IMG/VR virus record: IMGVR_UViG_3300047160_007939
Span: 55,515 to 119,514 of that record
DNA from: a virus
Reading direction: 5' to 3' (one strand)
DNA length: 64,000 nucleotides
Both the position numbers and the translations under genes were made by a program. This document shows, piece after piece, positions 1,435 to 13,139 of the stretch (the stretch's first letter is position 1; every line of letters begins with the position of its first letter). Under the pieces are notes generated by a model. The model was not told the DNA's origin and did no database searches. It worked only from the letters and a program-made list of their open reading frames with translations.

Positions 1435-1844
1435 CGGTTCTCTCGCGCGAAACGGCTCACTCCTACTCGTCGGTTCTCTTGACGATTGCGGCTCCGCTCC
1501 TACGGCTCGGTTCACTCCCAATGGACGGCTCGCTCCCAATGGACGGCTCGCTCCCAATGGACGGCTCTCTCCAGTACCTCGGCTCGCTCACGCGGCCCGG
1601 TTCTCTCTCTCCGCAGACGGCTCGCTCTCGATCTTCGGTTCTCTAGTACGGGTCGGCTCGCTGCGCTCATTCGGTTCTCACGCGCCATTCGGCTCCGCTA
1701 GGCTCTCTCGGTTCTCTCACCCCCACTGGCTCGCGCATAAGGTGCGGTTCTCTCCACCGACACCGGCTTGCTCACGACGTTCGGTTCCCTCCACTTCAGC
1801 GGCTCGCTTCTTCCACGCGGTTCACTCTTTAGCAACGGCTCACA
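1435..1844 (-). repeat. TIGR-like dual-repeat guide array 1 (23 repeats)
   Basis: + strand repeats CGGTTCTCT/CGGCTCGCT start at 1435,1453,1471,1489,1508,1526,1544,1562,1580,1598,1618,1636,1654,1672,1690,1709,1727,1745,1764,1782,1800,1818,1836, with ~9-nt variable spacers (18-nt period, 36-nt unit). Confidence 0.9.
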
Positions 1845-4800
1845 GGATGACACCCCCACGGCCACGGAGCTTGCCGATCTTACCGAGTGTATCACCCACT
1901 ACACTATACTCCGGTCGCGGGTCGTTCTCGTGATCCTTCCCCGTCATCTCCCTGCCGGCGAGGAACATCTGGTGATCGGCACGGTCGGTCCCCAGGTAGC
2001 TGATGTCCCCCACGTTGGCGTAGTAGGTCGCCGAGAGCTGCCACGCGATCATCTCGGCATCGCAGAGGTCTTTGGCTCCCTTTCCCCCATAGGCTGATGT
2101 AGCAGGGTGGTCGATCTTCCGGTTGTTGATGAGCTGCACCTCGCGGAGCTGGTTCCTGGCCCGCTCGTGCTGGGGGTAGCCCGGCTTTGCGGGGAGCAGC
2201 CAGAGCAGGTTGTTGTTCAGCAGCGTCTTACCGTTCCGGTACATCCCGAGCTGCTCCGGATTGGACATGTCTTTGGCATCGCAGGGGATGCCCCACGATC
2301 GTACTTCCTGGATGATGCTCTCCGCCTGCCAGCGGTCGAACTTCATACCACCGACACTGGCCCCGCCTGCTTGAACGACATCCACGAGCTGGCGGAGCAC
2401 ATCTCGCACGTTGCCGAAGTCCACGGCCAACCGGTTCCGTTTGTCGGGCTTCCACTCCAGGAGTAGATCCTCAACAACGACCGCACGTCGCTGCTCTTCA
2501 ATGATGTCGTTGCCGAGGAGGTCTTTCGCGTAGACGGGCGTTCCGTCGTCTTCGAGGCGTAGAACCTTCGGGGCGGCGATCTTCTGGCCCGTCTCTTCAG
2601 CCAGCCCCCAGAACTGGTCCTCATTCGCATTCGGAACTCTCCCGCAGTGGTCACAGCGCCACATCGACGGCTCCCACGGCTTCTTCCTGAAGAGCGGCTG
2701 CTTCTTCGGGTCACTGCTTCGCGGGATCTTCCTGGGCCGGTAATGCTTCGCGTAGCGGCGCTGCCGGATCAGCCAGCACGCCGGGCAGCACTTCCCACCC
2801 TCTTCGCTGGGGACGATGTGCGAGATACAAAGGGCGAAGCTGTCCTGCTCCAGCCCCGCGTCCCCACCCACGAAGTAGATGATGCCCGGCCTGATACGCC
2901 AGTCCGAGAGAAGGAGCGCCACGTAGCGGTGCGTCTGCTGGTCCGAGGTGAGGTGCTCGGTAACCGTGTTCTCCACCTGCGCCATCGGCTCGATCATCGC
3001 CCGCCTGCCGGCTGTCGCCGCTTCCTCGATCTTCTCCGGCTGGGAGATGAACGCGCCCTCGGCTGCCGGCGGGTTCGTCTCGTAGACTGCTTCGTAGAGG
3101 TCCGGGTCGTCGCGCTTCACCTGCGCCATCACCGGATCGGCTGCGTGCCACTCGCCGAGATAGTAGACCTTCTGCCAGTCGCGCCAGGGAATGACGATGC
3201 GCGTCGGAGCACGGTCGCCCCACCACTCGGGCGTGGCCCCGCCGAGGTTCTCACACTGCCGCAAGCCTCCCAGGATGAAGCCGTTCAGGGCGCGCGGCCA
3301 GGAAATGACGAAGCCCCACTGGAACGCGCCGAAGCGGTTACTGGTACGGAGCGTGTTGAAGCACGCCGTTGCCGCATCGTGGCCTTCGGCATCGCGGAGC
3401 GCATCCGCTTCATCCAGCACCCAGCCGAGGGTGTTCTTGCCTTCCGCGCTCTCGTTCTTCGAGTTCAGCGAGTGGACGCGCACGCAGGGAACCCGGTAGT
3501 CGTAGCCGGGCATCAGCTTCCAGAACTGCGTGACGTTGGCCTGGATGTCGCCTCGCGGCCCACGGTCGATCAAACCATCGAAGCAGGGCTTGCCGATGTG
3601 CCGAACGAAGCGGTCGTAGAAGTTGGACTTCGCGGCCCGAGCGTCCTGGGCCATGTTGATGAAGTCGAAGTAGTCGCCGTTGGCGTGCCGGAAGTGGACC
3701 CACGGATTGACCATCTGCTGGATCACCCACGCCGCATAAGCGTAGATCCAGGATACGAGGGTGTCTTTGCCCGAGTTGGCGTGTAACGTGCCCCCGGCAT
3801 CGAAGTAACAGTGTGTCCCACCCACGGTGAGGCTGTAGAAGTCCGCTACCCTGGTTGGCTCGATGGCGGTTATCTTGCTATACTTGGTGTATGCCAGTCC
3901 CACTAGACCACGAACTTCGCGCCCGTATCGTCGCCCTCTATGCCGAGGGGAAAAGCTCCCCCGAGATAGGCCGCATCGTAGGCAAGCACGCAGAGACGGT
4001 GCGCTATCACCTCCGAGGAGCCGGCGTGCGCGTCCGCACGAAGTCGGAAGCGAAGCTTCTGCTCGGACCCCGCCCACTGCCAACCCCCGTTGAAGTGATC
4101 GTCCAGGCTTACGAAGAGGGCTGGCCGCTAACCGCGCTATCCGCCGCGTTCGGCATCGCCGAAGAGACACTACGCCGACATCTCCATCGAGCCGAACTAA
4201 AGATGCGAGCGCGGGGCCATGTTCCGGGCCGCTACGCGCCGCAGATCGAAGAGGCAGGCGACTACGTGTCTGTGACGCGCCGCGATCACCCTCTTGCGGA
4301 CGCAAATGGACAGGTGATGGCACATCGGCTGGTAATGGAAGCGCACCTGGGGCGCTTCCTGACGGCTGAAGAGGTCGTCCACCACGAGAACGGCATCCGA
4401 GACGACAACCGGATCGAGAACTTACGCCTCTTCCCCAGCGACCGAGAACACGCTCTTCATCACTGGCAAGAGTGGAAGACGCGACAACTATCTCGTCCCC
4501 CACTTCCAGATCCACCAGCTTCTGCCAGCCAGCCGGCGAAAGAAAGCGATGCTCTCCCGTCACCTCGCTCTCCCGGCCATCCGCCAGCGTAACGCGATAG
4601 AGCTGGGCCGTGCCCTTCCGATAAACGGGTGACGCCTGCCGGTAAACGACGCGCTCCCCATCCCACGACCGCACCAGAAGCGGCGTGCCCAACTGCGCCC
4701 ACTCCCCCATCGTGCGCGTAATTCCCGTGACCGCCGTGCTATAATCAGTCAGAAGACTTGTCTTTGATGTGCAACCTTTGCCCCAGCACAGCCACGCCAC

Positions 4801-5103
4801 GTTGACGTGCCTCGGCCTGACGTACCAATCCGAGGCGTGCAGGCCGATGGACTGCTCTAGCGCCCACTCTTGCCGGGGGGTAAGCGGCGGATCGCCGAGG
4901 TACTGCGGGGAGGTGACGAACTCCGGCAAGCTGGGAATGTGCATCCCCACCGGCCACGGCCACTGCCGGAATGCCTTTCTCAGCATCTGCCGGCCAGCCG
5001 GCAGCGATGCCTCGCGGATGACGCTTGAGAGCGCGCCGCGCCGGATCGCCTCTTCTTTCATCTGCCGGCGCAGGTCTTCGAGCTGCGCTTCCGAGACGGG
5101 CAT
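1840..5103 (-). CDS. terL: terminase large subunit, interrupted by an intein
   Basis: Walker A GKG|SGKDT split by the intein, Walker B WVLDEAD, C-terminal RNase H-like nuclease motifs (FVGGDAG, KFDRWQ, KDLCDA). Confidence 0.85.
3876..3884 (+). promoter_or_regulatory. extended -10 promoter (TGcTATACT) for a leaderless antisense HNH mRNA
   Basis: TG-n-TATACT at 3876-3884, ATG at 3891, no Shine-Dalgarno; the same TGcTATACT occurs in the promoter at 31528-31536. Confidence 0.6.
3891..4592 (+). CDS. HNH homing endonuclease with two N-terminal HTH domains, antisense inside the intein
   Basis: HTH-like [19 protein letters not shown] and [22 protein letters not shown] motif [35 protein letters not shown]. 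Confidence 0.85.
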
Positions 5104-11871: not shown

Positions 11872-12044
11872 CAGTTCTCTATTACACCACGGCTCGCTAC
11901 TCGTGGACGGTTCTCTCGTCGCCTGCGGCTCGCTCGAAGGCATCGGTTCTCTCGTAATCGTCGGCTCCGCTCCGATTAAGCGGTTCTCTCCATCCGGGCG
12001 GCTCGCTCGTAGCGTCTCGGTTCACTCCACAACAACGGCTTTCG
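11872..12044 (-). repeat. TIGR-like array 5 (10 repeats), directly upstream of the Tas gene
   Basis: Repeats at 11872,11890,11908,11926,11944,11962,11981,11999,12018,12036. Confidence 0.88.
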
Positions 12045-12930
12045 CGGCTTCCAGGTAGTCTTCGACAATCTCGAAGCCCACGAAGTCCAATCCCAGGCTG
12101 ACGGCAGCAGCTCCGGCGTGCCCGATGCCGAGGAACGGGTCGAGTACGGTCTTCACCCGCTCCCTGCCGTGGAGCAGGATGCACTTCCTCGCCAGCTCGG
12201 TCGGGAAGGTGGCCGGGTGCGGACGCTGCCCGGCCCGGCTCTTGATCGTCTTGTAGGGTACGAACCAGACGTTCCCACGGCAGCGCCGGTCCACCCCACC
12301 GGGCTTTGCCCAGCGGGTCACGTTGCTCTTGTCCTGGTAGGGCACGCCCACGGCCAGCCGGTCCAGCGGCACGTCCCCCCGCTTCGTGAAGTGGAAGACG
12401 TACTCGTGGCAGTCGGAGAGGAAGCGCGGGCTGCTGATCGGCTTCAGGTGACCTATGGCTATATCACCTGTGATCCCAGGATAATCGCCCACGTCCTTCT
12501 TCTCGATGGCGATGCTCTTCACCCAATGGATGACATTCTGGAGTTCCAGGTGCTTCCCCACCACCATCGACACCAGGAACGGGACCCACGGATCGGTCGG
12601 CTTGCTTCCCAGCACCAGAAAGAGCGAACCATTCGGCGCAAGCACCTCATTCGTTGCCCTCGCCCACCGGTCCATCCACTCCAGGTACTCGCCTCGCGGC
12701 CCACGGTCATCGTAGCCGCTGTACTCCACGCCGATGTTATAGGGCGGCGAGGTCACCACCACGTCCACGCTGCCGGGGTCCAGCCGGCGGCGCATCCCTT
12801 CCACGCAATCCTCGTGGAAGAGACGCACCCACGACCGGCCTACCCGCGCTTCATACGCGGGCCGCTCTAGGGTCACGGTTCTCTGCTGTATCACGGCTAG
12901 CTCGGTTGACACGGTTCTCTCTGATAACAC
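12022..12930 (-). CDS. DNA methyltransferase, N4-C/N6-A beta class
   Basis: VVVTSPPYN catalytic motif, HPATFP, VLDPFLGIG SAM-binding motif. Confidence 0.88.
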   Translation of the reverse strand: MLSERTVSTELAVIQQRTVTLERPAYEARVGRSWVRLFHEDCVEGMRRRLDPGSVDVVVTSPPYNIGVEYSGYDDRGPRGEYLEWMDRWARATNEVLAPNGSLFLVLGSKPTDPWVPFLVSMVVGKHLELQNVIHWVKSIAIEKKDVGDYPGITGDIAIGHLKPISSPRFLSDCHEYVFHFTKRGDVPLDRLAVGVPYQDKSNVTRWAKPGGVDRRCRGNVWFVPYKTIKSRAGQRPHPATFPTELARKCILLHGRERVKTVLDPFLGIGHAGAAAVSLGLDFVGFEIVEDYLEAAKAVVVE

Positions 12931-13139
12931 GGCTCGCTTCTCTGTCTCGGTTCACTCGCTATGGCCGGCTTCGCTCGCGCGTGACGGTTCGCTTCGCTGA
13001 CGTGGCTCGCTCCCACTTAACGGTTCCCTCTGGAACAACGGCTCGCTCGTACCGAACGGTTCTCTCGTGGTTTGCGGCTCGCTCATGTACGGCGGTTCTC
13101 TATCTGATTGCGGCTCCGCTCCTACTGCACGGTTCTCTC
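12858..13139 (-). repeat. TIGR-like array 6 (16 repeats)
   Basis: Repeats at 12858,12876,12894,12912,12930,12948,12966,12985,13003,13021,13039,13057,13075,13093,13111,13130. Confidence 0.9.

Follow-up and report, generated by a model that had tools for sequence, protein, structure and literature searches.

A dual-repeat TIGR-Tas system of the nuclease-less TasA type is very probably encoded by a soil phage, of which the window analysed here is a stretch of 64,000 nucleotides (nt; IMG/VR virus record IMGVR_UViG_3300047160_007939, positions 55,515 to 119,514). The system comprises tasA (10654-11820, minus strand), which was assigned with NCBIfam model NF052498.1 and encodes a 388-amino-acid (aa) Tas protein with a Nop domain only, and seven guide arrays with 42 units, all on the minus strand of the genome, six of which lie in the window. 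Judged from the sequence, the layout is a rare one, with seven arrays of which two stand within genes other than tas; the family itself was already known (2025-2026).

On the minus strand of the window, the loop repeat AGAGAACCG and the edge repeat AGCGAGCCG alternate every 18 nt and form 36-nt units in six arrays, each unit consisting of an edge half, spacer A, AGAGAACCG, spacer B, and a second edge half. Exact copies of AGAGAACCG were found 26 times on the minus strand versus once on the plus strand, and those of AGCGAGCCG 24 times versus twice. A full-unit pattern (GCCG-N9-AGAGAACCG-N9-AGCG, at most one mismatch) produced 31 matches, all on the minus strand, where 0.01 (standard deviation 0.10) were expected from 100 shuffles, none of which reached 31. 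When a looser unit pattern was applied to the whole 119.5-kb genome, 41 matches were obtained on the minus strand and none on the plus strand, every match lying within the arrays. TRF returned period-36 arrays at 1506-1589, 5692-5827, 9015-9099, 10532-10614, 12872-12957, and 13039-13139, and a period-18 array at 11908-11954. The arrays were then parsed with extents that take in the terminal spacer and the truncated edge repeat, which, together with TRF, placed A1 at 1421-1844 (11 units), A2 at 5678-5862 (5 units), A3 at 8927-9149 (6 units), A4 at 10513-10667 (4 units), A5 at 11858-12044 (5 units), and A6 at 12862-13160 (8 units), all on the minus strand and with a total of 39 units. The seventh array, A0, was found by array parsing at genome positions 44729-44827 (window -10785 to -10687; L046:6730-6828; minus strand), 10.7 kb ahead of the first base of the window and ~21 kb from tas, and consists of three perfect units. 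The preliminary description of this stretch, which was made from the letters alone, had placed six minus-strand arrays with these two repeats at these sites and counted about 80 repeats and 35-40 guides; the pattern counts and the parsed units bear this out. Its grammar of ~9-nt repeats and spacers holds generally, but edge repeats of 10 nt (AGCG[G/A]AGCCG) also occur, as do a few spacers of 10-11 nt.

In published dual-repeat TIGR arrays, two alternating repeats of 8-12 nt and spacers of 9 nt build up units of 36 nt (Faure et al. 2025, PMC12045711, section 4). Section 8 of the same paper describes, for both repeats of the TaTasR tigRNA, an initial UG (box D) and a terminal CCA (box C) that covary between the edge and the loop repeat; the middle of the loop repeat is rich in A, and one additional base pair is formed in the edge repeat. 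In this phage both repeats read AG....CCG (loop AG-AGAA-CCG, edge AG-C-GA-G-CCG), so that box D/box C would be AG/CCG, unlike the published UG/CCA, and these ends appear to parallel the UG...CCA of the TasR tigRNA. AGAGAACCG was assigned as the loop repeat because of its A-rich middle, and AGCGAGCCG as the edge repeat because it is able to form an extra C3-G6 pair. This pair is retained or turned into U-G in the edge variants AGTGAGCCG, AGCAAGCCG, and the 10-nt form, and both the edge and loop repeats of relatives keep AG...CCG or CCA. Every array is closed by a truncated edge repeat, AGCG(A), as has also been published for TIGR arrays (PMC12045711, section 4). A CRISPR reading was rejected, the repeats being far too short and no cas gene being seen among the annotated open reading frames (ORFs). 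Array A1 contains, at ~1515-1572, three tandem copies of an 18-nt half-unit (spacer TCCATTGGG plus edge repeat), one unit carrying an edge repeat in the loop-repeat position; this looks like array growth through local duplication.

The TasA protein matched NF052498.1, an equivalog model named 'TIGR-Tas system RNA-guided endonuclease', with E 3.6e-46 and 157.9 bits (cut-off 100), the match spanning TasA residues 53-339 and model positions 1-214 of 215. PHROG 4285, which is annotated 'transposase', was matched with E 1.4e-31, and the ESM Atlas neighbours were virus clusters labelled transposase/Transposase_20. At E up to 0.01, Transposase_20 (E 2.5e-4) was the sole Pfam match, and the Pfam scan of TasA found neither an HNH nor a RuvC domain. 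At least 1529 homologues, mostly of 270-370 aa, were obtained at E up to 1e-3; PADLOC gave no match for TasA. The candidate assignment as an IS110 transposase was rejected, NF033542.1 scoring 23.4 bits against a cut-off of 140 and over residues 98-165 only.

Solved protein chains were searched using a profile of 40 TasA homologues, and the same 40 sequences were used for counting invariant residues. The profile matched 9mty_A (331 aa) with E 1.9e-22, TasH with E 6.3e-10, IS621 with E 5.6e-6, and ISCro4 with E 2.3e-5. Chain 9mty_A is taken to be TaTasR because TaTasR is also 331 aa long (Faure et al. 2025, PMC12045711). The match to this chain covers residues 117-324 only, and the N-terminal nuclease part is therefore unmatched; the ~50 residues that precede the family core of TasA include nothing that matches it. 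In the family, Tas dimerises via a coiled coil, and in 9mty_A it is this region (residues 117-214) to which the stretch ahead of the TasA Nop core aligns. The protein is thus like TaTasR in its Nop/IS110-type C-terminal domain, including the C-terminal GH[VI]DYI[KP]PP loop, and unlike it in having no match to residues 1-116 (the RuvC nuclease part), so that no cleavage would be expected, and in having a ~75-aa insertion in the Nop domain (residues ~160-236), which is common to about half of the aligned homologues. In SpTasH of Salicola phage CGphi29 (structures such as 9W03), Y289/H296 are described as the catalytic pair of metal-independent pre-tigRNA processing (PMC13421893). SpTasH and TasA are alike in the Nop domain, and Y352/H359 of TasA align to this pair in the profile alignment with equal 7-residue spacing; P351 and H359 are invariant in the 40 homologues, and Tyr352/His359 are predicted to be the pre-tigRNA processing pair. 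The HNH domain of SpTasH is absent here. Because the nuclease domain is absent and the Tyr/His pair is retained, the protein was assigned as a predicted TasA with a dual-repeat-type processing loop, as described in section 10 of Xu et al. 2026 (bioRxiv 10.64898/2026.09.09.750476). The preliminary description had likewise proposed a TasA-type protein with an IS110/Nop-type core and without a nuclease; the NF052498.1 score, the Pfam scan, and a TasR match that begins at residue 117 agree with it, and the 9mty_A, TasH, and IS621 matches confirm the core at the level of sequence.

Among the closest known systems are dual-repeat TIGR-TasA loci such as FpTIGR of Flavonifractor plautii (Faure et al. 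2025, PMC12045711), which is alike in its Nop-only Tas protein, two short repeats, 9-nt spacers, and 36-nt units, as well as in same-strand arrays on both sides of tas and a truncated last edge repeat. Unlike FpTIGR-type loci as described there, this phage has seven arrays up to ~21 kb from tas, which stand among terminase, methyltransferase, regulator, and primase-like genes; there is no terminator after the arrays, and two of them are embedded in frame in genes other than tas. The IS110 bridge-RNA recombinases and the archaeal and eukaryotic box C/D small nucleolar ribonucleoproteins (Nop5/Nop56/58) share a homologous RNA-binding domain (IS621 and Pfam Transposase_20, with the E-values given above) and a two-part guide with box C/D-like motifs, but the present system has no DEDD/RuvC recombinase domain, fibrillarin partner, or K-turn/L7Ae, and its guides are arrayed, not single.

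The 84 spacers of the seven arrays include 83 distinct ones. Their positions 1-8 hold 0-0.23 bit, and position 9 is G in 33/42 and 32/42 units. The GC content of positions 1-8 is 53.6% versus 64.5% for the genome, an estimated ~6 standard deviations below the value expected if such DNA were sampled at random, and the spacers therefore do not resemble a random sample of the phage's own DNA; the low value would be consistent with targets richer in AT, for instance promoters, or with foreign DNA. A 2.3-kb soil contig, L005, encodes a TasA that is 82% identical and a methyltransferase that is 78% identical, and has arrays at two homologous sites with repeats as here. Its array between the methyltransferase gene and tasA has 3 units, compared with 5 in this phage, within flanks identical at 38/45 and 54/63 positions, and the seven spacers of L005 that could be read by script all differ from each of the 84 spacers of this phage by at least 3-4 mismatches in 9. 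This is the pattern of a variable guide array, with spacers that appear to have been turned over in a relative, and it answers the preliminary description, which had asked whether spacers are invariant across related phages.

It is extremely unlikely that the repeats, instead of specifying RNA guides, serve as binding sites for proteins on the DNA (iteron- or operator-like) or are relics of peptide-coding repeats, with tas as a mere neighbour. Short direct repeats at a fixed spacing can be binding sites, and two of the arrays are translated in frame; however, the strand bias is strict (41 versus 0), the two repeats alternate in one grammar and have their AG...CCG ends in common, and the repeats are conserved while the spacers are replaced. 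The same grammar recurs beside Tas genes in the related loci L001-L004, L011, and L021, in which the loop repeats are lineage-specific. Furthermore, none of the three frames of A1, A3, or A6 is free of stop codons, on which ground a peptide-repeat reading was rejected for these arrays.

Published TasR leaves 8-nt 3' overhangs (PMC12045711, section 7), from which the 18-bp target was derived as spacer A followed by the reverse complement of spacer B. Target searches were performed for all 42 guides with this geometry and an alternative one, with the phage arrays masked and re-paired spacers as controls. At 3 mismatches, 8 and 4 matches were found in the phage genome versus 6.3 and 8.05 in the re-paired controls. 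The 45 related loci (512 kb) gave 1 and 2 matches at 2 mismatches, which is about chance by estimate. For single 18-mers searched against a large viral collection, chance matches are estimated, and Xu et al. agree in section 13 of their preprint (bioRxiv 10.64898/2026.09.09.750476). Since targets are absent from the phage itself, they probably lie in host DNA or in competing mobile elements.

According to the mechanism proposed for this system, the arrays would be transcribed on the minus strand together with the flanking genes. A TasA dimer would bind the AG...CCG (box D/box C-like) ends of both repeats, and TasA would cut inside each edge repeat to produce 36-nt tigRNAs. A dimer holding one tigRNA would then recognise an 18-bp site, reading one strand through spacer A and the opposite strand through spacer B, and would bind this site without cutting, thereby blocking transcription or another DNA transaction. 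In section 12 of Xu et al. 2026, MbTasA, which is nuclease-free like the TasA described here, binds target DNA and represses reporters without cutting, and MbTasA and catalytically dead TasR are presented as RNA-guided transcriptional repressors.

Four points weigh against the reading as a guide-producing TasA system. Transcription, the 36-nt RNAs, and their binding are predictions drawn from published members of the family. No self-target was found in the phage genome at up to 2 mismatches for the 42 guides in either geometry, as the preliminary description had also reported from a search by eye. Terminator-like sites occurred at chance level (9 versus 8.7), and none followed an array; an intrinsic terminator is the typical array end in the published description, where it is called typical and not obligatory (PMC12045711, section 4), and truncated array ends without terminators would fit read-through transcription along with the flanking genes. 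Finally, strains more than 99% identical, represented by contigs over 1300-13300 from four soil runs, showed no spacer difference, and turnover is therefore seen solely at greater evolutionary distance. Over this stretch the contigs differ by no more than a few single-nucleotide polymorphisms and small indels; those within the arrays are the polymorphisms at positions 1561 and 5811 and an indel of 6 nt at 13134. The polymorphism at 1561, which lies in the A1 triplication, separates strains in two of the four runs; contigs of two of the four runs lack 6 nt at 13134, which points to slippage at the 5' end of A6, inside the 3' end of ORF 13100-13528.

The terminase, methyltransferase, HTH, and kinase-like ATPase genes matched by PHROG and Pfam in 1-16000 are all on the minus strand. 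Arrays A5 and A4 directly flank tasA, as first described: there are 38 nt from the end of A5 to the tasA start codon, and the stop codon of the gene marks the beginning of A4. For A1, the stop codon of the large terminase gene terL (1840-5103, minus strand; PHROG/Pfam) lies inside the first, variant edge repeat, and the ATG of the downstream ORF (1421-1419) overlaps the truncated last edge repeat. Array A3 lies between ORF 9148-9492 and the small terminase gene (8152-8934, minus strand; PHROG/Pfam), the ATG of which (8934) is within the last spacer. The longest ORF of the DNA methyltransferase gene downstream of A4 (9859-10605, minus strand; PHROG/Pfam) starts within that array. Its family match begins ahead of the next in-frame start codon, and the only in-frame start upstream of the match (within 10476-10605) is GTG 10605, which lies in A4; because this sole start sits in the array, the first ~30 residues of the methyltransferase may be array-encoded. 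Array A5 lies between an N6/N4 DNA methyltransferase gene (12022-12930, minus strand; Pfam N6_N4_Mtase, E 8e-38; PADLOC MTase_II, E 2.9e-97) and tasA, and the TGA stop of the methyltransferase is within a variant loop repeat, AGTGAACCG. It is followed by a small hairpin (11845-11858, minus strand) and an AAAGGAG ribosome-binding site. The hairpin directly follows the last truncated edge repeat and reads CCGA-gattgt-TCGG, with CCGG-aattgt-CCGG at ~1063-1076 of L005, a compensatory stem change; placed just ahead of the tasA ribosome-binding site, it may serve processing or stability. Array A6 contains the stop codon of ORF 13100-13528, and the start of the N6/N4 methyltransferase is probably GTG 12828, 34 nt past A6. 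An (AG)n run precedes the first loop repeat of A6 (13130-13160).

Array A2 is not intergenic but lies in frame inside ORF 5261-6700 (minus strand), a 479-codon gene for a protein with three XRE-type helix-turn-helix (HTH) domains (Pfam HTH_3, E 2.6e-22). It keeps an exact 18-nt spacing, has no stop in the host frame, and is read as ERT/ERA repeats. GC content at third codon positions (GC3) is high in the same frame on either side of A2, and the ORF was called elsewhere by a gene caller as one 475-aa protein. The C-terminal part past A2 had no homologue besides itself, so that this case is the weaker one and the status as one gene rests on frame and GC3. Array A0 lies in frame inside a 351-codon primase-like gene (L046:6043-7098, minus strand; Pfam), the product of which has a DUF7146 domain at residues 127-197, a Toprim domain at residues 225-314, and a weak Zn-ribbon match at residues 14-58 (E 0.007, 16.9 bits versus a cut-off of 29.8). 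There are 222 homologues; among 120 that were listed, most align to at least ~90% of the query and take in both of its ends. In an alignment of 12 sequences, the residues coded by A0 (~88-125) fill the variable linker between the Zn-ribbon and DUF7146, which is ~20 residues shorter in the others. GC3 marks one frame on both sides of A0 as well. In the Xu et al. 2026 preprint, tas genes such as that of BlTasA contain intragenic tigRNAs, with guide units in frame in disordered linkers; the arrays of this phage are alike in being in frame, and unlike the systems tested in that work (stem-loop arrays; intragenic arrays inside tas), they are dual-repeat arrays and lie inside primase-like and HTH genes.

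Read-through, defined as at least 150 nt of open frame on each side, was found for two of the 49 arrays of 18 related loci and this genome, namely A0 and A2. These two have a spacing of exactly 18 nt, whereas each of the five intergenic arrays has at least one 10-11-nt spacer or 10-nt edge repeat; the chance that both intragenic arrays would lack such elements is, by rough estimate, ~0.06. The five genes that end in arrays stop in one codon register relative to the repeats: ORF 13100-13528 at 13100-13102, the N6/N4 methyltransferase at 12022-12024, tasA at 10654-10656, ORF 9148-9492 at 9148-9150, and terL at 1840-1842. Two of these stops are created by the variant repeats AGTGAACCG and TGTGAGCCG. 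The HTH ORF crosses A2 in the same register, which gives 6/6 in this genome. The post hoc chance of a common stop register is ~(1/3)^5 = 0.004, and the rule was not seen at the few comparable junctions of L001-L003.

These positions raise the alternative that the arrays act mainly or additionally in cis, cleavage of edge repeats by TasA severing the long leftward transcript at gene boundaries as well as within the mRNAs of the primase-like and HTH genes, so that guide production would double as post-transcriptional control. Cleavage would cut the phage's own mRNAs because the arrays stand at gene junctions and inside two genes. An upstream stop lies in or beside the first repeat in 5/5 cases, downstream starts are in or within 34-42 nt of the last unit, the arrays are not followed by terminators, the Tyr/His processing pair is retained, and A0 and A2 are in frame inside genes, with GC3 in one frame on both sides of each and with primase-like homologues that span both domains around the variable linker. 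Against this, an effect on the RNA is conjectural, with no demonstrated benefit from cleaving the phage's own primase mRNA; none of the 42 arrays in the 18 related loci is read through by genes, and a cis role therefore cannot be the general role of the family; and the turnover of spacers suggests that their content is important, as it need not be in a pure cleavage signal. A cis role is therefore considered unlikely. Similarly unlikely is a broader proposal in which the arrays would be part of gene expression. They would punctuate a leftward gene block of ~24 kb, with two translated as linkers, and the RNase activity of TasA would free the guides and also sever or trim the mRNAs, coupling guide biogenesis to the control of replication, packaging, and the regulator. 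The 6/6 stop register would then be a trace of array origin or of translation compatibility.

The gene order methyltransferase, array, tasA, array, methyltransferase, of which L005 keeps methyltransferase-array-tasA, bears on a further alternative. In box C/D ribonucleoproteins, Nop5 recruits fibrillarin, and by analogy a TasA-tigRNA complex might recruit both flanking methyltransferases for RNA-guided DNA methylation. A neighbour survey of 28 related loci covered, within 4 kb of tas, 125 ORFs that share its orientation and encode 130 aa or more; 64 opposite-strand ORFs had been dropped beforehand. The neighbours were mostly primases (Toprim/AAA_25, Prim-Pol), SNF2 helicases, PD-(D/E)XK nucleases, SSB, Rad52, ligase, and PolA, i.e. 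replication and recombination genes, and tasA would therefore usually belong to an early DNA-metabolism module. A co-oriented DNA methylase was present in only 3/28 loci, one of these matches being weak. Phage methyltransferases are common as anti-restriction genes, and with ~50 residues before its coiled coil TasA has no obvious recruiting domain. Guided methylation is therefore regarded as very unlikely, and the N6/N4 methyltransferase gene (12022-12828) is treated as a flanking gene.

The layout was compared between this genome and 45 related loci, 19 of which are shorter than 10 kb and unable to show scattering. Most related loci have one or two arrays adjoining tas. Arrays more than 3 kb from tas were found in 5/45 loci (L002, L003, L004, L011, and L021), L003 and L004 having identical array layouts; L002 and L003 each have six co-oriented arrays over ~10 kb, with the edge repeat as here and the loop repeat AGAGTGCCG. 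Because of these five loci, scattering is, within this sample, a recurring minority layout and not peculiar to this phage. The spread of guides over an operon, which the preliminary description had called unusual, is thus extended by the seventh array but also occurs in related loci, and the span of 12 kb with guides up to 9 kb from tas holds for the arrays of the window, A0 being ~21 kb away. According to Xu et al. 2026 (section 5), arrays may precede tas, follow it, or flank it on both sides, and are occasionally found within the gene. The text of the TIGR-Tas literature consulted mentions neither operon-wide scattering nor dual-repeat arrays inside genes other than tas; figures, supplements, and TIGRSafari were outside this scope, and similar cases may be catalogued in the figures of Xu et al. 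or in TIGRSafari.

The window makes up the final 64 kb of one contig of 119,514 bp with a GC content of 64.5%. Because 98 bases at the start of this contig are repeated at its other end, it is probably a complete, circularly assembled genome of 119.5 kb. Near-identical DNA is carried by 24 listed soil-metagenome runs with 23 study codes, which may be one campaign, and two of the 24 runs may be the source of the window DNA; the 24 include no RNA run. No Rfam family reached its gathering score in 1-16000, and among GenBank phages TasA was unmatched by tblastn and 1-20000 by megablast. The genes matched in 1-16000 also include a kinase-like ATPase. The TerL protein carries an intein (Pfam Intein_splicing, residues 160-437); the opposite strand of the intein region (3855-4592, plus strand) encodes an ORF with HTH and HNH_3 endonuclease domains, and the TerL sense frame there is low-complexity Arg/Ser/Gly. 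A 100-aa ORF that adjoins the primase-like gene (L046:5722-6024, minus strand) matches Pfam LEA_5 (E 2.8e-10), a stress/hydrophilic-protein family that is unusual for a phage.

The known mechanism of TIGR-Tas systems is unchanged by this finding. The systems were described in 2025, and their natural roles, their targets, and the acquisition of their spacers remain questions, for which 42 guides in seven arrays, together with a predicted self-processing TasA, provide a compact natural case. The questions served are what the guides of a phage TasA target, how arrays spread within a genome, and what effect array processing has on the genes that surround or contain the arrays.

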